From Clostridia bacterium (GTDB lineage: Bacteria; Bacillota; Clostridia; Oscillospirales; SIG627): a DNA stretch of 33,098 nucleotides. The stretch spans positions 1 to 33,098 of the forward strand of contig JAGDAA010000160.1 of NCBI GenBank assembly GCA_017959745.1, written 5' to 3'. Under the pieces are notes generated by a model. It was not told where the DNA came from. It searched no databases and saw only the letters and a program-made list of their open reading frames with translations. Positions 19,404 to 33,098 of the stretch are shown here, one piece after another. The position numbers were made by a program, and so were the translations under genes. Numbering within the stretch: the first letter of the stretch is position 1; each line of letters begins with the position of its first letter.

Positions 19404-22370
19404 TTATTCACTGCGCAGCGCCACAACGGGATCCCGCCGCGCGGCGACTCCTGAGGGGATCAATCCCGCCAGATATGTCAGTGCCATGCTGATAACCACC
19501 AGGATGACAGCCCCGATCGCCGGCAGGGCGGCGCCGATGGTGGAAATGCCGGAAAGGGAGCGGATAATGGCATTGATGGGGATGATGAGGATCAGTGTGA
19601 ACCCGATGCCGATGAGACCGGCGACAAATCCCTCGATCAGGGTTTCCGCATTGAAGACCCGGGCGATATCCCGCCGGGAGGCGCCGATGGAACGGAGAAT
19701 ACCGATTTCTTTGGTGCGTTCCAATACGGAAATGTAGGTGATGATTCCGATCATAATGGAGGAGACCACCAGGGAGATAGCGACAAAGGCGACCAAAACG
19801 TAGGAAATGGCGTTGATGATGGTAGAAATGGAGGACATCAGAAGCGCGACGTAATCGGTATAGGTGATCTGGTCCGCTTCGGATTTGCCCTCGTTGTAGG
19901 CGGCGATGCAGTCGGAAATAGCGTCCTTATCGTTGAAGGTGTTGGCGTAGATATAAATGGCATCCGGCTTTTCCTGATCCAGGTATCCGATCCGTTTTAG
20001 AACATCTTTTTGATTGGATTCGGAGAATAGAGCCGGCATATAGTTATCATAGAGCGTTACCAGCTGGCTGGCGCTGAAAGTGCTCTGCGCCAGCGCCGCG
20101 TCAAACGCCGCCGCCAACTGGGCTTCGCTGTAGGCGCTGAAGCGGCGCGTGGCTTCCCGGGTATACTGCTGACGGATCTGCTCCGCCAATCCGTCCGTTA
20201 CCGCCTTGCGCAGATCCTCATCGGACATTTCCGCAACGTAGGAGAGAATATATCCGGTATCCGTTCCTTCTTTTTCGCTGGCGGTGATGTACCCGACGAC
20301 GAGTTGTTCCAAACCCGCCCGATCCAGACCGCCGATGGTCTGGTCAATCGCGGCGGCGACGTATTCGTCGCTCGCCTGGGTCATCAGGGAGAGATACATG
20401 GCACTCTTCTGGGACGGGTCGGCGTCTTTCGCCCAATCGGTGATCAATCCGGGCTTATCCTCTTCGCCGGGGACGGGGTCGTTTTCGGTGCGGAAGGGAA
20501 GCCCTAACACAACGTCCGTCTCGGGATGATCAAACTGCGCCTGTACCATTTCCTGCTTTTTCGTTTCCGTGAGGATATATTCGGTCAGAGCGGCCGTATA
20601 GCCCATAGTCCCGTTCAGCATCCCGGCGGTGGCGTCCTCTTTCTGACGGATGACGCCGGATATGGTCAGCGTGATGCCGCGGTCGCTGTTAAAGAGATAG
20701 TTCAGCCCGTTTTCCGTTTCCGTCAGCAGCGTATAGCCCTGTTCCAGGTTCTTTTGATACAGTTCCGGGGTCAGGAACAGGCGAAAGCTGCGAGAGAGTA
20801 CATCCTCATAGGAAAAGGCGCGGTACTGAATATCAATCTGCTCCCCCTGGCTGGTGGTTTTCAGTTGATCCGCCAGCTCGCTCATGGTCTTGAATCCCAG
20901 CGCGCCCAGCATCATATCGCTGACTTCATTGTTCTTATCAACGATCAGGACCACCTGATCGTAGCGCTCCGGCCATTTACCAGCCAGCAGGTCATACTGT
21001 CCGGGGATCAGGCTGTTGATCAAGGCGCCGTCCTCCCCGGGGAGCATTTCCTCCCAGAGCCTCAGGCGTGAAAAGTTCGCGCCTTCGTCTCTGGCGCCGA
21101 ACGCCTCAGAAGGGATCCCCGCTTCCCGGAAAACGTCCTTCATCATCGTATTCACGTCGCTGCGTCTGCGAAGACCATCGCCATCCTCCGTGTAGATGTT
21201 CAGATCCACGTTGTAGCTATAGTGAACGTCGGAAATATGGGATCCGATCCCCTCAGTATCTTTTTCCAGATAGTCGCGAAACGCCTTTGTGTCGTTGGTG
21301 TTGACGCCGGCACTGTTCAGGGAGTTGACCAGCTCGCCCATAACACTGGAGGAATAGACCGCGTCCAGTTCGTGTGCTTCGCCGGCCTCCCCCCGGCGAA
21401 TGCCCATCAGGGTTGTCAGTACGCCGCTGAGGTCTATGCTCTCCGCCTGAATGATAATGGGATAGCTGGAAAGTGTGTCTTCCTGGACCTGCTCAATATA
21501 CTGATTGATGCCGTTTGAGAGCGACAGGATCAGGGCGATCCCGATGATGCCGATGGATCCGGCGAAGGCGGTGAGAAGGGTGCGCCCCTTCTTTGTCATC
21601 AGATTATGAAGGGAGAGACTCAGCGCCGTGAAGAAGGACATGGAGGGCCTTTTTACCTTCACGTCCGCGCTTTTCTCCTTTTCGTCCCGGTCGTCATAGG
21701 GCATGGAATCATCCACCACTTTTCCGTCCAGGAGCTTTATGATGCGTGTGGAATACGTTTCCGCCAGGGCGGGGTTGTGGGTAACCATGATGACCAGTCT
21801 GTCTTGCGCCACTTCTTTCAGCAGATCCATAATCTGTACGCTGGTGACGGAATCCAGCGCGCCGGTGGGCTCGTCCGCCAGCAGGATCTCCGGATCGTTC
21901 ACCAGGGCTCTGGCAATGGCGACCCTTTGCATCTGACCGCCGGACAGCTGGTTCGGACGCTTTTTCATTTGATCCTTCAAGCCAACCCGCTCCAACGCCT
22001 TCCGGGCTCTATTCCTACGCTCCGATTTGGAAACGCCGGAGAGAGTGAGCGCCAGCTCCACGTTGGCGAGCACACTTTGGTGGGGGATAAGGTTATAGTT
22101 CTGAAACACAAATCCAACGGAATGGTTGCGGTAAGCGTCCCAGTCAATGGGGGAAAACTGCTTTGTGCTTTTCCCGTTGATGACAAGATCCCCCTCCGTG
22201 TAGCGATCCAGCCCGCCGATGAGGTTGAGCAGCGTGGTTTTTCCGCACCCGGAAGGCCCCAATACGGAAACAAATTCATTCTTTCTGAAAGACAAATCAA
22301 TCCCGCGCAAAGCGGAGACCCGATCGTCTCCGGAAAGGTAATCTTTGGTAATGCCACACAGTTTCAGCAT
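19404..22370 (-). CDS. Fused ABC transporter ATP-binding protein/permease (MacB/FtsX-like)
   Basis: GPSGCGKT, LSGGQMQR and LADEPTG; one TM helix, a large extracellular domain, then C-terminal SVLERTKEIGILRSIGA permease. Confidence 0.92.
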   Translation of the reverse strand: MLKLCGITKDYLSGDDRVSALRGIDLSFRKNEFVSVLGPSGCGKTTLLNLIGGLDRYTEGDLVINGKSTKQFSPIDWDAYRNHSVGFVFQNYNLIPHQSVLANVELALTLSGVSKSERRNRARKALERVGLKDQMKKRPNQLSGGQMQRVAIARALVNDPEILLADEPTGALDSVTSVQIMDLLKEVAQDRLVIMVTHNPALAETYSTRIIKLLDGKVVDDSMPYDDRDEKEKSADVKVKRPSMSFFTALSLSLHNLMTKKGRTLLTAFAGSIGIIGIALILSLSNGINQYIEQVQEDTLSSYPIIIQAESIDLSGVLTTLMGIRRGEAGEAHELDAVYSSSVMGELVNSLNSAGVNTNDTKAFRDYLEKDTEGIGSHISDVHYSYNVDLNIYTEDGDGLRRRSDVNTMMKDVFREAGIPSEAFGARDEGANFSRLRLWEEMLPGEDGALINSLIPGQYDLLAGKWPERYDQVVLIVDKNNEVSDMMLGALGFKTMSELADQLKTTSQGEQIDIQYRAFSYEDVLSRSFRLFLTPELYQKNLEQGYTLLTETENGLNYLFNSDRGITLTISGVIRQKEDATAGMLNGTMGYTAALTEYILTETKKQEMVQAQFDHPETDVVLGLPFRTENDPVPGEEDKPGLITDWAKDADPSQKSAMYLSLMTQASDEYVAAAIDQTIGGLDRAGLEQLVVGYITASEKEGTDTGYILSYVAEMSDEDLRKAVTDGLAEQIRQQYTREATRRFSAYSEAQLAAAFDAALAQSTFSASQLVTLYDNYMPALFSESNQKDVLKRIGYLDQEKPDAIYIYANTFNDKDAISDCIAAYNEGKSEADQITYTDYVALLMSSISTIINAISYVLVAFVAISLVVSSIMIGIITYISVLERTKEIGILRSIGASRRDIARVFNAETLIEGFVAGLIGIGFTLILIIPINAIIRSLSGISTIGAALPAIGAVILVVISMALTYLAGLIPSGVAARRDPVVALRSE

Positions 22371-24070: not shown

Positions 24071-24079
24071 ACCCGCATA

Positions 24080-24338
24080 AATGCAAGGATGATATTACGT
24101 TTTCCGGCAATGCTTTCCAAGAGAGCCGCGGCAGGTGTGAAGCGGTAAAGGATCCGGAGGACGGTCTCGTATCGGAGCAGAGCGCCCGAAAGGAAACCGG
24201 TAAGGCGCTACGGGAGATCCCGTTACAGGTCGGGGACTTGCTTGAGTCCCGCAGAGTGGCTGGATTTACAGCAACCCGGGTGGTACCGTGGCAAAAATCG
24301 TTTTGTCATCCCGCGGAGGTTATCTCCGCGGGTTTTTT
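24080..24338 (+). ncRNA. T-box riboswitch, predicted Leu specifier (CUC at 24166-24168)
   Basis: Stem I with AGAGA bulge and GGTGTGAA loop; T-box GGGTGGTACCGTGG at 24278-24291; antiterminator helices CGGG/CCCG and GTGGCAAAA/TTTTGTCAT; overlapping terminator. Confidence 0.92.
24310..24338 (+). terminator. Attenuator terminator of T-box 1
   Basis: CCCGCGGAG-gttat-CTCCGCGGG-TTTTTT; shares its 5' arm with the antiterminator. Confidence 0.88.
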
Positions 24339-24363: not shown

Positions 24364-25752
24364 ATGAAAAAAATCTTCGTCTGCGACTGCACCCTTCCCG
24401 TTCTTACCGGCGAGCGCACCCGCCCGCTTTTGGCGAGAGAAAAGAACGCTCTGGCACAGCGCCTTGACGCGTTGGGCGTGGATATTCTGGAGCTTCCCGC
24501 CGTACGGAACATAAAAGAGGATACCATTATCCATAAGACAATCGCCTCCGGCGTGGGAGGAAGGATACTCGCTGTACCCGCCGGGGACAGTGAGGAAGCT
24601 GTTGATGCCGCCTGGGAGGGTGTTTCCGGCGCGGAAAAGCCCATGTTGACGATCGCGCTCCCGATCTCCACCGTGCAGATGGAGTACCGCTATCACCTGA
24701 AGGAAAACAAGATGGCGGGGAAGGTTAGCGCTCTGGTCGGGTATGCGAAGAAAAAAGGATGTCTTGTGGCGTTTTCCGCCGGCGACGCTTCTCGGGCATC
24801 CGAGCCATTTCTGACGGAGATATCCCGTACCGCTGTCGCCGCCGGCGCCGATTATCTGATCTTCTGCGACGACGCGGGGGATCTTTTGCCTGAGGAACTC
24901 GCCCGCAAGATCCGCTTGGTCAAGGATGCTGTTACGGTGCCCGTTATTGTCTCTCTCTCCGACAGTATCCATTGCGCCTGTGCCAACGCTATAACGGCAT
25001 TGCGCGCCGGCGCGGACGGCGTTCGTTGCGCTGTGACCGGGGCAGACGTGCTTCATACCGGCGCTCTCGCCGCGGCGATTGCCGCGTTGGGCGATACCCT
25101 TTCCATCTCTGTCGGATTGAGGGAAACCGAGGTCCATAATGATATTTCCGAAATGTTAAAGCATGTTTCCTCTTCCCAAAAGCCCGTATCAGGGAGTGAA
25201 TCCGCCGGTGTGATCCTGGACGCTGAAAGCACGCCCGCTCAGATCGGTGAAGCGGTCCGTTCCCTGGGATACGATCTTTCCGCTGACGATTTGGGAAAGG
25301 TCTGCGAATCCGTCGCCCGCATCTGTGAGAAAAAGAGCAGCATCGGGGACGTGGAACTGGAAGCGGTCATCGCTTCTTCCGCTATGCAGGCGCCTTCCAC
25401 CTACCATTTGGTCAGTTATCAGATCACCAGCAGCAACGTTGCCAGGGCAATGGCGAGCATCACGCTCTCCCGCGGGGATGAAACGGTGTGCGGCGTGGCA
25501 ACCGGCGACGGACCCATCGATTGTTGCTTTAAGGCCATTGAACAGTCCATCGGCTACCATTATGAACTGGACGATTTTCAGATCCAGGCGGTGACGGAGG
25601 GTAAGGAGGCTTTGGGCTCCGCGCTGGTCCGTCTGCGCAGTCAGGGAAAACTGTACTCCGGAAACGGTCTCTCCGCCGATATTGTCGGCGCCAGTATCCG
25701 CGCGTATATCAACGCTTTGAACAAGATTGTCTATGAGGAAACAGAAAGATGA
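24364..25752 (+). CDS. LeuA (2-isopropylmalate synthase)-like protein with a degenerate catalytic barrel and intact allosteric domain
   Basis: C-terminal GDGPID...QAVTEGKEALG...G.G.S.DIVGASIRAYINALNK is conserved. DTTLRDGEQ has become DCTLPVLTG and HxHND has become SLSD. Confidence 0.85.
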   Translation: MKKIFVCDCTLPVLTGERTRPLLAREKNALAQRLDALGVDILELPAVRNIKEDTIIHKTIASGVGGRILAVPAGDSEEAVDAAWEGVSGAEKPMLTIALPISTVQMEYRYHLKENKMAGKVSALVGYAKKKGCLVAFSAGDASRASEPFLTEISRTAVAAGADYLIFCDDAGDLLPEELARKIRLVKDAVTVPVIVSLSDSIHCACANAITALRAGADGVRCAVTGADVLHTGALAAAIAALGDTLSISVGLRETEVHNDISEMLKHVSSSQKPVSGSESAGVILDAESTPAQIGEAVRSLGYDLSADDLGKVCESVARICEKKSSIGDVELEAVIASSAMQAPSTYHLVSYQITSSNVARAMASITLSRGDETVCGVATGDGPIDCCFKAIEQSIGYHYELDDFQIQAVTEGKEALGSALVRLRSQGKLYSGNGLSADIVGASIRAYINALNKIVYEETER

Positions 25753-28211
25753 AGCTCGTCTTTTCAACGCATAACGTTAAGCGGGGATTCTTTTTGGATC
25801 TTTGCCGGATGGCTTTTGATTATGGCTTTTCCGGGTTTGAGATTTATGATGCCGTTTCCGAGCGCCGCTACCACGGGGACAGCGTTCTTCGCGCTGAGAT
25901 CGCATCCGATGCCAAGAGGAAGCTCCACAACCGCTCTCTCTCCGTTTCCGCGCTGACGGTCCCGCTTCCTCTGGAGGATGACGGATGTACGCCGCGCCTT
26001 TTGCTCCAGTACGTTGAAATGGCGCAGAGCGCCGGGGTGGAGCAGATCATCGTCCATACCGCCGGTGAAAACGATCTGCCTCTGTTTATGGAAAAACTCG
26101 GGGACGCCGTTAAGCGGGCGGAAGCTCTGGGTGTGGAGATCCTGTTTGAAACCACGGGATACCTGGCTGAAACGGAACACGCCCTGGAGATCGTCAACGG
26201 CTTTTCCTCCGCCGCCATCGGCGTAGCGTGGAACATCCGGGAAACCTTCTTCTCCGCCGGTGAAAGCGCCGAGAACACCATCAAAACGCTGGGCGCCTAC
26301 ATCCGTTACGTTCGCTTTGGCGACCGCAAGGAGGGAAAGGACGTTCTCGTTGGCGAAGGGGAACTCCCCGCGGTCTCCTTTATCAATGCCCTTCGCTCCC
26401 TGAATTTTGAGGGGTATATCGCCTGCGCCTGGAATGAGGAGATTACAGACGCGGATATTGTTTTAACGCATTTTCAAACTTATATGACCGGCTTTGAGAA
26501 AAGCGCTCATACCACCCGGGCTTTGCCCACGAACCGTGCCGGTACGGGGACTTTTCCCTGGAAAAAGTACGATACCATCGACCTGACCTTTCCCCAGGTG
26601 CTGGACGTAATGGCGGAGACTTATCCCGATCAGCTGGCGTTCAAATATACCACGCTGGATTATACCCGCACCTACGCCCAGTTTCGCCGAGATGTTGACC
26701 GGGTGGCGGCGGCTTTCATCGCTATGGGCGTGAAGCCCGGCTATCACGTTGCCATCTGGGCGACAAACGTTCCCGCCTGGTTTTTGACCTTCTGGGCGGC
26801 TACCAAGATCGGCGCCGTTCTGGTGACGGTAAATACCGCCTATAAGATCCACGAGGCGGAATACCTGCTGCGGCAGTCCGATACACACACTCTCATTATG
26901 ATCGAGTCTTCCAAGGATTCCGACTATAAGGGGATCATGGAGGAACTGTGCCCCGAGCTTGCCACGCTGGAAAAGGGAAAGCCCCTGTACGCCAAACGGC
27001 TTCCGTTTCTCCGGAACATTATTACCGTCGACTTTTCTATGAATGGATGCCTCACCTGGGAGGAAATGATGGACACGGCGGAGCGCACGCCCCCCGAGGA
27101 AGTCCGCCGCCGCGCCTCCCGGGTCCGTCCGGACGACGTATGTAATATGCAGTATACCTCCGGCACCACCGGTTTTCCCAAGGGCGTTATGCTGACCCAT
27201 TCCAATATTATCAACAACGGTAAGATCATCGGCGACCGTATGGATATGTCCACCGCGGACCGGATGATGATCCAGGTGCCTATGTTCCATTGCTTCGGCA
27301 TGGTGCTCTCCATGACCAATATGATGACCCACGGCGGCACCATGTGCCCCATGCCCTATTTTTCGCCGAAGTCCTGCCTGTCCTGTATCACAAACGAAAA
27401 GATCACCTGCTTCAACGGCGTACCCACTATGTTCATTGCACTTTTCAATCATGAGGACTTCGCCGTGACCGATTTCTCTCATATGCGTACCGGCATTATG
27501 GCGGGCTCCAACTGTCCGCCGGACCTGATGCGCCGCGCCGCGAGAGAAATGAATATGCGGGAGATCCTTTCCGTGTACGGGCAGACCGAATCTAGTCCGG
27601 GCTGCACCATGGGCGAGGTAAACGAGGATGAGGATCATCGGGTGGAAACCGTCGGCTCGGCTTTTCCGGGTGTTCAGTGCAAAATCATCGACCCCGAGAC
27701 CGGAAAGGATTTACCAGACGGAGAGAACGGCGAGTTCGTGGCAAAGGGCTTCAATATTATGAAAGGCTATTACAAAATGCCGGAAGCCACCAAACAGACC
27801 ATCGATGAAGATGGCTGGCTCCATACCGGCGATATCTGCTGCCGCACGACGGACGGATATTACAAGGTGACCGGACGTTTGAAGGATATGATCATCCGCG
27901 GCGGAGAAAATCTGTATCCCCGGGAGATCGAAGAGTTTTACCTGACCCATCCCAAGGTGAGGGACGTACAGGTCATCGGTGTGCCGGATGAGAAGTACGG
28001 GGAGGAGGCGTGCGCCTGGATAATCCTTCACGACCACGAGGAAAGCGGGGAAGAGGAAATGCGTGAATACGGCAATGCTCATATGGCGCGCCACAAGGTG
28101 CCCCGGTACTTCCTGTTCGTAAAGGATTTTCCCATGAACGCCGCCGGAAAGATTTTAAAGTACAAGATGAAGGAAAGCTCTGTGGAGCTTTTGGGTCTGG
28201 AAAAGAAATAA
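25749..28211 (+). CDS. Fusion of a degenerate xylose-isomerase-like TIM barrel and an AMP-forming acyl-CoA ligase
   Basis: The first ~250 aa resemble the AP-endonuclease-2/sugar epimerase barrel. C-terminal YTSGTTGFPKG, YGQTE, GWLHTGD, GRLKDMIIRGGEN and GKILK motifs are intact. Confidence 0.88.
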   Translation: MKLVFSTHNVKRGFFLDLCRMAFDYGFSGFEIYDAVSERRYHGDSVLRAEIASDAKRKLHNRSLSVSALTVPLPLEDDGCTPRLLLQYVEMAQSAGVEQIIVHTAGENDLPLFMEKLGDAVKRAEALGVEILFETTGYLAETEHALEIVNGFSSAAIGVAWNIRETFFSAGESAENTIKTLGAYIRYVRFGDRKEGKDVLVGEGELPAVSFINALRSLNFEGYIACAWNEEITDADIVLTHFQTYMTGFEKSAHTTRALPTNRAGTGTFPWKKYDTIDLTFPQVLDVMAETYPDQLAFKYTTLDYTRTYAQFRRDVDRVAAAFIAMGVKPGYHVAIWATNVPAWFLTFWAATKIGAVLVTVNTAYKIHEAEYLLRQSDTHTLIMIESSKDSDYKGIMEELCPELATLEKGKPLYAKRLPFLRNIITVDFSMNGCLTWEEMMDTAERTPPEEVRRRASRVRPDDVCNMQYTSGTTGFPKGVMLTHSNIINNGKIIGDRMDMSTADRMMIQVPMFHCFGMVLSMTNMMTHGGTMCPMPYFSPKSCLSCITNEKITCFNGVPTMFIALFNHEDFAVTDFSHMRTGIMAGSNCPPDLMRRAAREMNMREILSVYGQTESSPGCTMGEVNEDEDHRVETVGSAFPGVQCKIIDPETGKDLPDGENGEFVAKGFNIMKGYYKMPEATKQTIDEDGWLHTGDICCRTTDGYYKVTGRLKDMIIRGGENLYPREIEEFYLTHPKVRDVQVIGVPDEKYGEEACAWIILHDHEESGEEEMREYGNAHMARHKVPRYFLFVKDFPMNAAGKILKYKMKESSVELLGLEKK

Positions 28212-28274: not shown

Positions 28275-28286
28275 CGCCATAGTCCC

Positions 28287-28555
28287 AAAAAGCGATGACG
28301 AAGACGGAGCTGATCGTGAAGCCCCAAGAGAGCCGGGGACGGTGTGATCCCGGCGGTGAAAGATCTCCCTCCCATCCCTTCCGAGCTGAAGGTCCGAACA
28401 CCCTTCGTTAGTAGGCGCCTTCCGTGATTGCTGCGTAAACGCATACGGCTTGTCAGAGCCTGAGTGGCGGTTTTATCCGCAATTTGAGTGGTACCGCGGG
28501 TCTTGAAGAGGTTTCAAGCTCGTCTCAAAGTAGATTCTTTGGGACGAGTTTTTTT
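28287..28555 (+). ncRNA. T-box riboswitch, predicted Ile specifier (AUC at 28374-28376)
   Basis: AGAGA bulge and GGTGTGA loop; stem II GAA/AGTA S-turn; T-box GAGTGGTACCGCGG at 28486-28499; antiterminator helices TTGAG/CTCAA and GCGGG/CTCGT. Confidence 0.92.
28519..28555 (+). terminator. Attenuator terminator of T-box 2
   Basis: CTCGTCTCAAAG-tagatt-CTTTGGGACGAG-T7. Confidence 0.88.
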
Positions 28556-28572: not shown

Positions 28573-30837
28573 ATGAACACCGCAAAGCCTATGCAAAACG
28601 AACTGACCGAGGTCGCTTCCCGCATTCGTGCTATTCGTGAGATCCTTGGCTACACGGAAGAAGCTATGGCGGGACTGACCGAAGTCTCCGTGTCGGATTA
28701 CGTCACGTATGAAAGCGGAAAGGTGGATCTGCCCTTTACTTTTATCCACAAATGCGCGCTGGCGTTCCGTATGGAGCTCACCGAGCTTTTGGAAGGGCAC
28801 GACGCGCACCTGTCCTCCTACACGGTCACCCGCAAGGGGCAAGGACATCAGACCGCCAAAGAAGACGGCATTATGATCCAGAATCTTGCGCCCAAGTTCA
28901 AGAGCAAGATCGCGGAGCCCTACTGGGTCCGCTACGAGTATTCCGAGGAACTTCAGAACAAGCCCATTCACCTGACCCGGCACAGCGGGCAGGAGTTTGA
29001 CCTGATTTTGTCCGGCTCCCTTTTGGTGCAGGTCGGAAAACACCAGGAGGTTCTCCGGGAAGGGGACAGCATTTACTACAACAGTTCCACGCCTCACGGT
29101 ATGATCGCGGTTGGCGGGAAGGACTGCGTATTCTGCGCGGTGGTCCTGCCCGGCGAGGACGGAAGCCGGGACGAAATGAGACAGACCGCTACCGCAGCCG
29201 ATACAAGGCTTTTGTGCGAGGAATTCGTCACCACCGGCGTGGACGAATCGGGGCGTCTCCAATCGGTGGAGTTTCACAATACGGAGCGCTTCAATTTCGG
29301 GTATGACGTGGTGGATCGAATCGCCGATCATTATCCCGAAAAGCTCGCAATGATCCATCTGGATAAAAACAAGGTGGAGCGGCGCTTTACCTTCAAGGAT
29401 ATCAAGAAGGAGTCCAACCGCACCGCAAACTACTTCCGCTCTTTGGGCATCAAAAAGGGCGACAAGGTTATGCTGGTTCTGAAGCGCCATTATCAGTTCT
29501 GGTTCGCCATGGTGGCGCTCCACAAGCTGGGCGCCATCGCCATCCCCGCTACCTACCTTCTCAAAGTTCATGATTTTGAGTATCGCTATAACGCAGCCGG
29601 GGTCAACGCCATTGTATGCACCGCCGACGGAGACACCGCTGATCTGGCGGAACAGGCCATGAAGAATTCCCCCACGGTGACCACCAGGGTCCTGGTGGGC
29701 GGTAAAAAGGACGGCTGGCACGATTTCGACGCGGAGTACCCGTTGTTCTCCAGCGTCTTTCCCCGCACGGAAGAAACCCCCGCGGGAGACGAGCCCGCCT
29801 TGATGTTCTTCTCCTCCGGTACCACCGGGAATCCCAAGATGGTGGAGCACAAGCACACCTACAGCCTGGGGCACTTCCTGACGGCGCGCTATTGGCATTG
29901 CTGTGAGCCGGACGGCTTACACTTCACCATTTCCGATACCGGCTGGGGCAAGTCCCTGTGGGGCAAGCTCTACGGACAGTGGATGTGTGAGGGCGCGGTT
30001 TTCGTTTATGACTTCGATCGGTTTGACGCTTCGGATATCCTTCCCATGTTCGCCAAGTATCAGATCACGACCTTCTGCGCGCCGCCCACTATGCTGCGTA
30101 TGATGATCAAGCAGGATATTTCCAAGTACGACTTTTCCTCCGTGAAGCATATGACCACGGCTGGGGAGGCGCTGAATCCCGAGGTTTATCGGCAATTCGA
30201 GAAAGCCACGGGGCTGGAGATTATGGAGGGCTTCGGACAGACGGAGACCACTCTTGTCATCGCTAACTTCGCCGGAACCCCGGTCAAGATCGGCTCTATG
30301 GGTATCGCATCTCCCCAGTACAAATTGGAACTGGTGGATAAGGACGATAAACCCGTGCCGCCCGGAGAGGTGGGTGAGATCGCCATCCGCTTGGATGGGG
30401 GAAGCCCGGTCGGTCTGTTTCGTCAGTACCTGGCGGAAGAAGAAAAGACCGCCGAATGTATGCGCAACGGACTGTATCACACCGGCGATACCGCCTGGAG
30501 AGACGAAGACGGCTACTTCTGGTACGTGGGCCGTGTGGACGACATCATCAAGTCCTCCGGCTACCGCATCGGACCCTTTGAGATCGAGAGTGTCATCATG
30601 GAACTGCCCTACGTTCTGGAGTGCGGCGTTTCCGCCGCCCCCGACGAGATCCGCGGGCAGATCGTCAAGGCGAGCGTCGTTCTGACCAAGGGTACCAAGC
30701 CCACGGAGGAACTGAAAAAGGAAATCCAGAACTACGTCAAGGAGCATACCGCTCCTTACAAATACCCGAGACTTGTGGTGTTCCGGGATGAACTGCCCAA
30801 GACCATCAGCGGTAAGATCCGCCGCAACGAGCTGTAA
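28573..30837 (+). CDS. Fusion of an XRE HTH-cupin regulator module and a medium-chain acyl-CoA synthetase-like ligase
   Basis: N-terminal RIRAIRE...YESGK HTH and cupin HSGQEF...LREGDSIYYNSSTPHGM; then FSSGTTGNPK, SDTGWGK, EGFGQTET, YHTGD, GRVDDIIKSSGYRIGP and PKTISGKIRR. Confidence 0.9.
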   Translation: MNTAKPMQNELTEVASRIRAIREILGYTEEAMAGLTEVSVSDYVTYESGKVDLPFTFIHKCALAFRMELTELLEGHDAHLSSYTVTRKGQGHQTAKEDGIMIQNLAPKFKSKIAEPYWVRYEYSEELQNKPIHLTRHSGQEFDLILSGSLLVQVGKHQEVLREGDSIYYNSSTPHGMIAVGGKDCVFCAVVLPGEDGSRDEMRQTATAADTRLLCEEFVTTGVDESGRLQSVEFHNTERFNFGYDVVDRIADHYPEKLAMIHLDKNKVERRFTFKDIKKESNRTANYFRSLGIKKGDKVMLVLKRHYQFWFAMVALHKLGAIAIPATYLLKVHDFEYRYNAAGVNAIVCTADGDTADLAEQAMKNSPTVTTRVLVGGKKDGWHDFDAEYPLFSSVFPRTEETPAGDEPALMFFSSGTTGNPKMVEHKHTYSLGHFLTARYWHCCEPDGLHFTISDTGWGKSLWGKLYGQWMCEGAVFVYDFDRFDASDILPMFAKYQITTFCAPPTMLRMMIKQDISKYDFSSVKHMTTAGEALNPEVYRQFEKATGLEIMEGFGQTETTLVIANFAGTPVKIGSMGIASPQYKLELVDKDDKPVPPGEVGEIAIRLDGGSPVGLFRQYLAEEEKTAECMRNGLYHTGDTAWRDEDGYFWYVGRVDDIIKSSGYRIGPFEIESVIMELPYVLECGVSAAPDEIRGQIVKASVVLTKGTKPTEELKKEIQNYVKEHTAPYKYPRLVVFRDELPKTISGKIRRNEL

Positions 30838-30884: not shown

Positions 30885-31958
30885 ATGGCTTACAACATTC
30901 CGATTACAAAAACACAGAATCCCAAGCCCCTGCCTCAGGATGAGACCAAGCTGGGCTTCGGAAGGATCTTCACCGATCATATGTTCGTGTGGGATTGGGA
31001 TAAAGAGAAGGGCTGGCACGATCCCCGTATTGAGCCTTTCGGTCCCATCGTCCTGCACCCTGCCTCCACCGTTCTGCACTACGGCGCGGAGATTTTTGAG
31101 GGTTTGAAGGCATATCGCAGGATTGACGGCACAATCGCCATGTTCCGTCCCCAGGAGAATTTCAAGCGTATGAACCGTTCCGCCGAGCGGATGGGTCTGC
31201 CGGAATTCGACGGCGAGCTGGCGTTGGAAGGTCTCACGAAACTGGTGGATCTGGATTCCGAATGGATCCCTCACGGTGAAGGGACCAGTCTCTATATCCG
31301 CCCCTTTATGATCGGCGACGATGAGCATTTGGGCGTTCACGCCGTATCTCACGCCCGTTTTTACATCATCCTTTCCCCTTCCGGAAGCTACTATGCCGGC
31401 GGCCTGGCACCCGTGAAGATTATGATTGAATCCCACGATGTGCGCGCGGTCCGCGGCGGCACGGGCGAAGCCAAGTGCGGCGGTAACTACGCTGCCAGCA
31501 CCCGCGCCGGCGAGAAGGCCATGGAGAAGGGCTTTGCCCAGGTTTTGTGGCTGGACGGTGTGGAACAGAAGTACATCGAAGAAGTTGGTGCGATGAACAT
31601 TATGTTCAAGATCGCCGGCAAGATCGTCACCCCTGCGCTCACCGGTTCCATTCTGCCCGGTATCACCCGGAAGAGCATCCTGGAGTATCTCCGCGCCCAT
31701 GGCGTGGACGCCGAGGAACGCCGGATCAGCGTGGATGAACTGGCGAAAGCTATGGAAGACGGCACGCTGGAGGAAGCCTGGGGCTGCGGCACCGCGGCGG
31801 TGGTGTCTCCCGTGGGTCTCCTTTCTTACAACGGCAAGGAATATGAGATCGCCGGCGGAAAGATCGGCGAAACGACGCAGATGCTCTACGACGCCATCAC
31901 CGGCATCCAGTGGGGCAAGCGTCCTGATGAATTCGGCTGGATCTACAAGGTGAAATGA
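30885..31958 (+). CDS. ilvE: Branched-chain amino acid aminotransferase
   Basis: LGFGRIFTDHM, LHYGAEIFEGLKAYR, KCGGNYA (PLP Lys), EEVGAMN, ILPGITR and GTAAVVSPVG. Confidence 0.96.
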   Translation: MAYNIPITKTQNPKPLPQDETKLGFGRIFTDHMFVWDWDKEKGWHDPRIEPFGPIVLHPASTVLHYGAEIFEGLKAYRRIDGTIAMFRPQENFKRMNRSAERMGLPEFDGELALEGLTKLVDLDSEWIPHGEGTSLYIRPFMIGDDEHLGVHAVSHARFYIILSPSGSYYAGGLAPVKIMIESHDVRAVRGGTGEAKCGGNYAASTRAGEKAMEKGFAQVLWLDGVEQKYIEEVGAMNIMFKIAGKIVTPALTGSILPGITRKSILEYLRAHGVDAEERRISVDELAKAMEDGTLEEAWGCGTAAVVSPVGLLSYNGKEYEIAGGKIGETTQMLYDAITGIQWGKRPDEFGWIYKVK

Positions 31959-32596
31959 AGCGCGTAACCCTGTTTTGCGGGCATTACGGCAGCGGTAAGA
32001 CCAATATCGCCATCAACTACACCAAGTCATTGATTAAACGCGGCTTGCCTGTGACCATCGCTGACCTGGATGTGGTCAATCCCTACTTTCGAACCAAGGA
32101 CAGCGAGGCGGAATTGATCGAAGCGGGCGCGAAGGTCATCACGATGCCCTTTGCCAACAGCAACGTGGATCTCCCGTCCCTTCCCGCTGAGGCATACGCC
32201 CTCGTACAGGACAAAATCCGCTACGCCGTGATCGACGTGGGCGGTGACGACCGGGGCGCTTTGGCGCTGGGTCGGTACGTTCCGTACATCCTGGAGGAAA
32301 ACAACTACGATATGCTCTGTGTCGTGAACTTTTACCGCCCGCTGACTACCACGCCCGGGGAGGCGCTGGAAGTGTTGCGGGAGGTGGAAGCGGCGGCGGG
32401 ACTCCCTTTCACGGGGATCGTCAACAATTCCAATCTGGGAGCGGAGACCACCAGGGAAGCGATAGAAGCGAGCAAGGATAAAGCGGCTGCTTTGTCGAAA
32501 CTTGCCGGCATTCCGGTGCGTTTTACCTCCGTCCGCGCCGACCTTGCCTGTGGCGACGAATTTCCACTTGATTTGCAAAAGAAAATTTTTGAATAG
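31955..32596 (+). CDS. P-loop NTPase of unknown function (MinD/CooC/CobQ-like fold)
   Basis: GHYGSGKT, ADLDVVNPYFRT and IDVGGD; ATGA-coupled to ilvE. Confidence 0.8.
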   Translation: MKRVTLFCGHYGSGKTNIAINYTKSLIKRGLPVTIADLDVVNPYFRTKDSEAELIEAGAKVITMPFANSNVDLPSLPAEAYALVQDKIRYAVIDVGGDDRGALALGRYVPYILEENNYDMLCVVNFYRPLTTTPGEALEVLREVEAAAGLPFTGIVNNSNLGAETTREAIEASKDKAAALSKLAGIPVRFTSVRADLACGDEFPLDLQKKIFE

Positions 32597-32821: not shown

Positions 32822-33098
32822 ATGGCGGAAAAAGTATTGATGAAGGGCAACGAGGCCATCGCCGAAGCGGCGATTCGCGCCGGTTGCCGCCACTATTTCG
32901 GCTATCCCATCACGCCCCAGACGGAACTGGCGGCGTATATGGCAAAGCGTATGCCCAAGATCGGCGGCGTCTTCCTCCAGGCGGAGAGCGAGATCGCCGC
33001 GATCAACATGGTCTACGGCGTTTCCGGTACCGGTAAGCGCGTCATGACTTCTTCCTCCTCCCCCGGCGTTTCCTTAAAGCAGGAGGGCATTTCCTACA
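32822..33098 (+). CDS. vorB: 2-oxoisovalerate (3-methyl-2-oxobutanoate):ferredoxin oxidoreductase alpha-type subunit VorB, 3'-truncated; absent from the ORF track
   Basis: My translation reads [35 protein letters not shown]...[14 protein letters not shown]...[17 protein letters not shown]; GAGGTG RBS. Confidence 0.88.

Follow-up and report, generated by a model that had tools for sequence, protein, structure and literature searches.

In the HisZ-HisG complex, whose structure has been solved, the enzyme of the committed, ATP-using step of a pathway receives feedback from the end product through a dead paralogue of another, unrelated enzyme: HisZ derives from histidyl-tRNA synthetase, and its partner is the short form of HisG, the ATP phosphoribosyltransferase. 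Leucine control of another kind is exerted in the Firmicutes by leucine-specific T-boxes, which lead leuS and the ilv-leu operons. Rumen bacteria can carboxylate isovalerate to leucine, as described by Allison et al. (1962, 1966), cited in the accessible part of PMC7356843. In this study we analysed a stretch of 33,098 nucleotides from a Clostridia bacterium (GenBank assembly GCA_017959745.1, contig JAGDAA010000160.1), referred to here as the window, in which a leucine T-box precedes a degenerate homologue of LeuA, the 2-isopropylmalate synthase (IPMS), followed by a gene that joins a degenerate xylose-isomerase-like barrel to an acyl-CoA ligase. The analysis makes it very likely that the LeuA homologue, which we call pseudo-LeuA, and the fusion constitute a leucine-controlled two-gene module with one working enzyme.

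Pseudo-LeuA (P0002, 462 amino acids) is encoded at 24364..25752 and the fusion, an open reading frame of 820 amino acids, at 25749-28211; these and all other features of the window described here lie on the forward strand unless stated otherwise. At the junction (...agaaagATGAagctc) the stop codon TGA of pseudo-LeuA (25750-25752) overlaps the ATG of the fusion (25749-25751), so that the ATGA overlap described in the initial annotation of this DNA can be read directly from the junction sequence, and GAGGAA is found 8 nucleotides (nt) upstream of the fusion ATG. The fusion is represented by 1478 clusters at an E-value of 0.001 or better, almost all of about 819 amino acids, and by at least 578 stretches from species-representative genomes, of which the 80 best loci were used for the locus counts given here. 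Pseudo-LeuA lies immediately upstream of the fusion in all 79 loci that have upstream DNA, the locus L006 being cut at the start of the fusion. The gap between stop and ATG is 1 nt in 59 of the 80 junctions, that of the window among them, and does not exceed 11 nt in 77, and across the loci a ribosome-binding site, GAGGAGG, is embedded in the last Glu-Glu codons of pseudo-LeuA.

The same association holds across the order, from which 301 evenly drawn genomes were sampled. A barrel match of at least 99 bits was obtained in 122 of them, almost always in open frames of fusion length (about 800 amino acids or more), with a few cut or broken. Pseudo-LeuA is present in 73 genomes and the fusion lies directly downstream in 72; in the remaining one (G234) pseudo-LeuA is 510 nt from the end of its contig. 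True LeuA, scored with TIGR00973 at an E-value of 1e-90 or better, occurs in none of the 73 genomes with pseudo-LeuA, compared with 99 of the 228 others. Within the window's family, true LeuA is found only in genomes whose fusion is without pseudo-LeuA, and the genome of the window itself, at 77% completeness, yielded no second LeuA homologue. The initial annotation had proposed co-occurrence of the fusion with a dead LeuA as a check, and pseudo-LeuA was indeed seen with the fusion throughout, save for the case at the contig end. Together with the 1-nt junction and the embedded ribosome-binding site, this order-wide co-occurrence establishes the two genes as a fixed and translationally coupled pair, which many uncultured bacteria of the gut carry. 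The pair exists in more than one subtype. In the window's genus (g1, G000), most genomes carry another subtype, whose barrel is 26-29% identical and bears the motifs WQMSAAYF, VQFND and SLVW, while four genomes carry the subtype of the window, so that the module as a whole may have been replaced in some lineages or passed from one to another.

Pseudo-LeuA has the domain order of LeuA/IPMS (TIGR00973; 3ewb, 3rmj), an HMGL-like barrel followed by LeuA_dimer, and the initial annotation was right to call it a pseudo-enzyme. Alignment with 3ewb shows RD replaced by LT and HxH by SxS, and the protein lacks the Glu of EDATR, GERxGNA, the FxHxSGIHQ segment and the whole of accessory subdomain I. The HMGL-like domain is degenerate, scoring 90.5 bits against 299 in the true LeuA of a related genome, and the Pfam scan gave no match to HCS_D2 in pseudo-LeuA, for which the true LeuA scores 97.6 bits. 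With TIGR00973 the protein reaches 214.1 bits, far under the cut-off of 598.7. The C-terminal regulatory domain, LeuA_dimer (PF08502), is intact at 102.3 bits (cut-off 24.9), compared with 121.7 in the true LeuA of the related genome and 108-122 bits in true enzymes. Thus the curated score, the catalytic residues and subdomain I of a 2-isopropylmalate synthase are missing and its regulatory domain is present; judged by its sequence, pseudo-LeuA is a catalytically dead LeuA. Almost all positions from 330 to 460 are at least 90% conserved, which makes the regulatory domain the best-conserved part of the protein. An Asn-to-Asp change in the regulatory loop is family-wide: the window reads GDGPID at residues of about 381-386, and 35 of 37 aligned pseudo-LeuAs have GDGP, the others being GNGP (L046) and GDGA (L031), with GNGP in two true enzymes. 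Sequence and profile searches of the PDB with pseudo-LeuA returned only IPMS catalytic domains; the leucine-bound IPMS structure is 3FIG according to the accessible part of PMC9860122, which does not list the residues of the pocket. The pseudo-LeuA family comprises at least 7310 clusters at an E-value of 1e-60 or better, named 'hypothetical protein' or '2-isopropylmalate synthase' in their sources.

The barrel of the fusion (residues 1-250; 25749..26498) is of the sugar epimerase/AP-endonuclease-2 type, in agreement with what the initial annotation had seen in the N-terminal part of about 250 residues. Pfam AP_endonuc_2 (PF01261) covers residues 22-230 (E 1.2e-16, 61.6 bits against a cut-off of 31.1), and an AlphaFold model of residues 1-270 has eight strand/helix units, with a predicted local distance difference test score (pLDDT) of 90.2 and a predicted template-modelling score of 0.87. 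Foldseek aligned this model with solved xylose-isomerase-like barrels at template-modelling (TM) scores of 0.70-0.75 and 13-18% identity, the matches including sugar epimerases, AsbF, IolI and MJ1311. As a general rule, members of the PF01261 family bind metal through Glu, Asp, His and Glu at the ends of strands 5-8. In the window barrel three of these four ligands are replaced, and alignments with MJ1311 (3wqo) and with intact relatives bear out the losses first listed as NIRE, RFGD and a final Ala: WDxHH has become WNIRE (D to N162, H to E165, the latter being the second His), VHxKD has become VRFGD (H to R189, with D192 retained) and SLEW has become ACAW (E to A227), which leaves E134 and D192 as the only surviving site residues. 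The window barrel has the fold of PF01261 without the Glu-Asp-His-Glu ligand set and is, on these residues, a structural member of the family and no canonical enzyme. Within the window's subtype the consensus is WNVRGT, VRLGD and AAW, or WN[VI]R[EG]T, VR[LF]GD and AAW with the variants included; 64 sequences show no variation at R164 and D192 and conservation of 90% or more at E134, N162 and R189. A conserved linker, NRxxTGTFxWKKYDxIDxTF, recognised from the alignments, connects the barrel to the ligase (26499..26600), with low model confidence at residues 252-257.

The history of the barrel is best seen in the fusions that have no pseudo-LeuA. All 26 that were sequenced keep E134, D162, H165, H189, D192 and E227, at 50-60% overall identity, and their barrel is surely an enzyme, given the retained site. 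Among 29 fusions with pseudo-LeuA outside the window's subtype only one has all six residues, the survivors being D162 in 15, H165 in 3, H189 in 20, E227 in 16 and D192 in all 29. Fifty genomes of the order sample have a fusion without pseudo-LeuA, and 22 of these also lack LeuA; 11 of the 22 were sequenced and every one is intact. The loss of the barrel site therefore follows the presence of pseudo-LeuA and not the absence of true LeuA. The idea that the site was lost because the isopropylmalate pathway was lost is ruled out by the same 11 fusions. The barrel predates pseudo-LeuA and was an enzyme that lost its site after pseudo-LeuA had arrived. A representative search with the barrel gave mostly fragments, and many apparently stand-alone matches continue into the linker of the ligase, which shows them to be truncated fusions. 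The intact-site fusions stand alone behind a leucine (CUC) T-box in genomes both with and without LeuA (L089-L094, L097-L116); Infernal detected the leader in 4 of 5 and in 15 of 20 loci, and all 19 read CUC by eye. At one of the 26 intact-barrel loci, L089 (G047:C35), a true LeuA (525 amino acids) and a CimA-like paralogue (520 amino acids) lie directly upstream of the intact fusion on the same strand, with the leucine T-box in between, and this arrangement may be the ancestral form that gave rise to pseudo-LeuA.

The ligase domain (26601..28211, identified with Pfam and NCBIfam) belongs to the ANL family, with AMP-binding at fusion residues 288-675 (313 bits) and AMP-binding_C at 726-801 (56.7 bits). 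Both the P-loop, TSGTTGFPKG, and ...AAGKILK, whose GK contains the C-terminal catalytic Lys, are present, and the domain is 78-84% identical over the 80 loci. It scores 652 bits with NF009233/PRK12583, below the cut-off of 832. No close characterised relative was found, the best solved matches being fatty-acyl, feruloyl and malonyl-CoA synthetases at 225-253 bits, and the sources name the fusion only 'AMP-binding protein'.

The leader that precedes pseudo-LeuA (leader 1, 24077..24316) matches the T-box family RF00230 over its full length (model positions 1-219 of 219) with 90.5 bits and an E-value of 1.5e-19, and the alignment GGU CUC G UAUC GGAGC gives the specifier as CUC (Leu). Its score lies under the gathering score of 93, which is why it was missed when an Rfam scan of the window at the gathering threshold returned nothing; both T-boxes of the window emerged in E-value mode. 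Orthologous leaders score 107-135 bits on RF00230. A regular expression applied to the leaders of 75 related loci read CTC in 57, CTG in 3 and CCC in 2 at the specifier place, and since such expressions misread the specifier register the codons were read by eye from the printed sequences. As read from its specifier, leader 1 is a leucine T-box that would turn on the pseudo-LeuA/fusion bicistron when tRNA-Leu is uncharged. The leader of L002 and L036 (Ructibacterium sp.) reads CCC in place of CUC (GAACCCACC). In L062, L064, L066 and L067 there is no T-box before pseudo-LeuA and a promoter-like stretch, TTGACA...TATACT, is found instead; in these loci the fusion is followed directly by ilvE, a CbiA-like gene and vorB.

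Downstream of the fusion, a second T-box (leader 2, 28286..28530; RF00230, 71.2 bits, E 1.4e-14) has the specifier AUC (Ile), read against four orthologous leaders; the base following the specifier is C, where a purine is usual. It precedes a helix-turn-helix (HTH)-cupin-acyl-CoA synthetase fusion (28573..30837), a candidate 2-methylbutyrate ligase that resembles MbcS and scores 444 bits with NF047394 (AcylCoAsynMbcS) against a cut-off of 850. Next come the branched-chain amino acid aminotransferase IlvE (30885..31958; NF009897, 471.6 bits against a cut-off of 307), a CbiA/ParA-like P-loop protein (31955..32596) and the 5' part of a gene for the alpha subunit of a VorB-type 2-oxoacid:ferredoxin oxidoreductase, which runs off the window (32822..33097; NF005507, 167.5 bits over the 92 residues present). 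In other loci, too, the pair has ilvE, the CbiA-like gene and vorB as neighbours. Infernal found three T-boxes in each of the four loci tested; their specifiers were read as Leu, Ile (AUC) and Val (GUA), every T-box precedes a separate ligase gene, and the Val T-box was found in loci that have a third ligase gene. Each of the three acid-activating enzymes would be turned on when one branched-chain amino acid runs short. Three such T-boxes, each ahead of a ligase beside IlvE and VorB, fit the reductive carboxylation of branched acids to amino acids, and it is probable, if by no means certain, that the fusion ligase activates isovalerate for leucine synthesis. The Ile and Val T-boxes each lead an acyl-CoA synthetase with N-terminal HTH and cupin domains (the window; L031, L065, L076, L079), so that all three branched-acid ligases have an extra N-terminal domain, and it is unusual for a ligase to carry a DNA-binding sensor module.

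Two further observations concern genes around the pair. The CbiA/ParA-like protein is kept between ilvE and vorB at 48-62% identity in other loci (L039, L047, L062-L067, L077, L082-L086); its CbiA match is weak (E 3.6e-4), an NCBIfam scan gave no match for it, and it may help to mature the oxidoreductase or act as an accessory factor. An ABC_tran-FtsX fusion of 988 amino acids is encoded on the reverse strand at 19404-22370, and counterparts of 1076-1088 amino acids occur in L091 and L094, in each case within a few kilobases of the barrel-ligase gene. This may be a synteny conserved between the window and two distant relatives.

Both pseudo-LeuA and the barrel are under purifying selection. 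Over 108 pairs, which are not independent and many of which have saturated synonymous rates (dS), the median ratio of non-synonymous to synonymous substitution rates (dN/dS) is 0.094 for pseudo-LeuA, 0.088 for the barrel and 0.032 for the ligase, and the unsaturated pair L009/L012 gives 0.092, 0.078 and 0.031. As a catalytically dead paralogue under purifying selection, pseudo-LeuA is in this respect what a regulatory partner of the HisZ kind would be. Decay of pseudo-LeuA as a pseudogene is ruled out by open frames in 78 loci and a dN/dS of about 0.09. The rates of pseudo-LeuA and the barrel covary: their partial correlation given the ligase is 0.68, a value reached by none of 999 permutations, compared with 0.24 for barrel and ligase given pseudo-LeuA, in a test that is weakened because the proteins share their history and the ligase distances span a small range. 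When pseudo-LeuA and the barrel were co-folded, the median score was 0.43 (runs 0.42-0.50), with 0.00 for the best of three controls, a pass of the weak class. Of 157 solved complexes 116 pass the mark, as do 2 of 215 mismatched pairs, and scores over the mark of at most 0.60 include 18 of the 157 solved complexes and both passing mismatches, counts that hold only approximately here because custom alignments were used. The runs had at least 47% of their contacts in common, and the pLDDT of the partner was at least 85. We know of no solved complex of this kind, so the pass is unlikely to reflect a structure that the predictor had already seen. The initial annotation had the barrel dock pseudo-LeuA. 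The co-fold, the covarying rates and the decay that tracks pseudo-LeuA lend this some support, while docking was not the first role of the barrel; we give binding of pseudo-LeuA to the barrel an even chance.

The explanation that we favour, while holding it only tentatively as a whole, is that the fusion is an isovalerate ligase of a leucine route and that pseudo-LeuA and the dead barrel are its putative leucine-sensing partner module. When tRNA-Leu is uncharged, the T-box would switch on the coupled bicistron. The ligase would convert isovalerate to isovaleryl-CoA, which a VorB-type oxidoreductase would carboxylate reductively and IlvE would transaminate. Since true LeuA is absent, this ATP-using ligation would be the committed step of the leucine route, where feedback control makes sense, and pseudo-LeuA with the dead barrel would form a non-catalytic module on the ligase that may sense leucine and restrain the ATP-consuming step. 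That leucine does act via pseudo-LeuA on the ligase is a possibility about which we are doubtful. The fullest version of the idea is no easier to credit: LeuA would have been kept as a dead leucine sensor once the isopropylmalate route was abandoned and would have docked on the ligase barrel, whose site then decayed, so that two pseudoenzymes make a switch in which a former enzyme domain, now an adaptor, lets LeuA-type feedback by the end product act in trans on an unrelated ATP-using enzyme.

A number of observations weigh against leucine sensing by pseudo-LeuA on an isovalerate ligase. Leucine control is already supplied by the T-box alone. The subdomain I that is deleted in pseudo-LeuA carries, according to the accessible part of PMC9860122, residues without which real IPMS does not respond allosterically, and with GNGP changed to GDGP the effector could differ. 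Isovalerate as the substrate is taken from the context (the Leu T-box, IlvE, VorB) and not from a close homologue. Co-fold passes of the weak class are wrong in the majority of cases, except where the guess was a likely one to begin with. The existence of intact-barrel fusions without pseudo-LeuA means that the barrel did not arise as a dock, and the fusion of L118, although accompanied by pseudo-LeuA, retains the complete set of six site residues. On the barrel tree the presence or absence of pseudo-LeuA is a single change (support of 100 in the Shimodaira-Hasegawa-like approximate likelihood ratio test, SH-aLRT), so that the co-occurrence amounts to one evolutionary event followed by repeated loss of site residues.

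Some of these observations suit a partner that is purely structural. With the ligase as described above, pseudo-LeuA and the dead barrel could serve in folding, oligomer assembly or stability and leave all leucine control to the T-box, which forms a complete control loop; the deleted subdomain and the GDGP loop agree with this, and purifying selection and coupling suit a structural subunit as well as a sensor. We nevertheless consider a mere scaffold rather unlikely, given that no part of pseudo-LeuA is better conserved than the regulatory domain and that this domain, at 102 bits, scores near the true enzymes, which exceeds what a scaffold needs, and that the fusions without pseudo-LeuA (50 genomes) manage alone. 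Another proposal, with distinctly poorer prospects, is that the pair adds chemistry or substrate delivery instead of feedback, either because the old metal site is now a metal-free pocket (N162, R164, R189, D192, E134) for an anion such as a carboxylate substrate, a 2-oxo acid or leucine, or because the pseudo-LeuA barrel has a new activity. The conservation of these five residues within the window's subtype, the two arginines close to the former metal position and a dN/dS of about 0.09 would agree with a pocket. However, conservation of at least 90% extends to 129 of 270 columns in that subtype, so that the old site is not conspicuous. Outside it, position 165 is A, Y, N, S, E or P, position 162 is N, Q, E, S or H, position 189 is Q or L and position 227 is V or I, which points to relaxed constraint rather than to one new site, and every catalytic residue checked is lost in pseudo-LeuA. 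Finally, genes under one T-box need not interact, and with weak support from the co-fold pseudo-LeuA could bind leucine on its own, as a buffer or to sense it for a different target, and share nothing with the ligase except a leucine-controlled transcript. This is the least probable of the readings, as pseudo-LeuA always came with the fusion (72 of 73 genomes, a contig end intervening in the remaining one), the 1-nt junction with its embedded ribosome-binding site is conserved, the decay of the barrel tracks pseudo-LeuA and the rates of the two covary.

If the favoured explanation of a leucine-sensing module on an isovalerate ligase is correct, the window supplies genes and a control logic for the isovalerate-to-leucine route of rumen and gut anaerobes, which is known from labelling work of the 1960s, and it provides a second clear case, beside HisZ-HisG, of a dead paralogue that places an unrelated enzyme under feedback by the end product. 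The relatives with an intact barrel suggest that there is another enzyme activity likewise under leucine control. The current names are also of practical concern: because pseudo-LeuA is called '2-isopropylmalate synthase' and the fusion 'AMP-binding protein', metabolic models may wrongly infer leucine prototrophy by the classical route and may overlook a dependence on branched short-chain acids.

The literature that we covered, which did not extend to subscription journals, yielded no description of the fusion or of a dead partner derived from LeuA, and no report of branched-acid ligases controlled by a T-box. As far as the accessible parts of the papers on the isovalerate route go, they do not assign its genes and do not describe T-boxes, a dead LeuA or a dead barrel. 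The window nevertheless resembles the rumen isovalerate carboxylation pathway in that the genomes are from gut and rumen and that a ligase, a 2-oxoacid:ferredoxin oxidoreductase and a transaminase are all encoded here. The second ligase of the window resembles MbcS of Staphylococcus aureus, an ANL ligase that activates branched short acids (accessible parts of PMC10026030 and PMC11167679). Unlike PRK12583 and MbcS, both window ligases score under their family cut-offs and have added N-terminal domains (barrel; HTH-cupin), and their acyl-CoA would feed the synthesis of amino acids and not that of fatty acids. Leader 1 is like the leucine T-boxes of the Firmicutes (RF00230) in its full-length match, CUC specifier and conserved GGUGGUACCG box; unlike those of leuS and ilv-leu it controls no classical enzyme of leucine biosynthesis, and it stays slightly below the gathering score. 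The barrel has the fold of MJ1311, UlaE (3cqj), AsbF (3dx5) and L-ribulose 3-epimerase (8yeb), all within the TM range given above, and differs from them in its replaced metal ligands and its fusion to an acyl-CoA ligase. Pseudo-LeuA, in turn, departs from LeuA/IPMS in the loss of RD, the Glu of EDATR, HxH, GERxGNA and subdomain I and in GDGP for GNGP. In logic the closest analogue is HisZ-HisG, in which, as would be the case here, a dead paralogue of an enzyme that handles the amino acid of the pathway partners the ATP-using committed step. Unlike HisZ, the dead partner in the window comes from LeuA, a second dead domain is fused to the enzyme itself, and the binding and regulation that are known for HisZ-HisG are predicted for pseudo-LeuA and the fusion.

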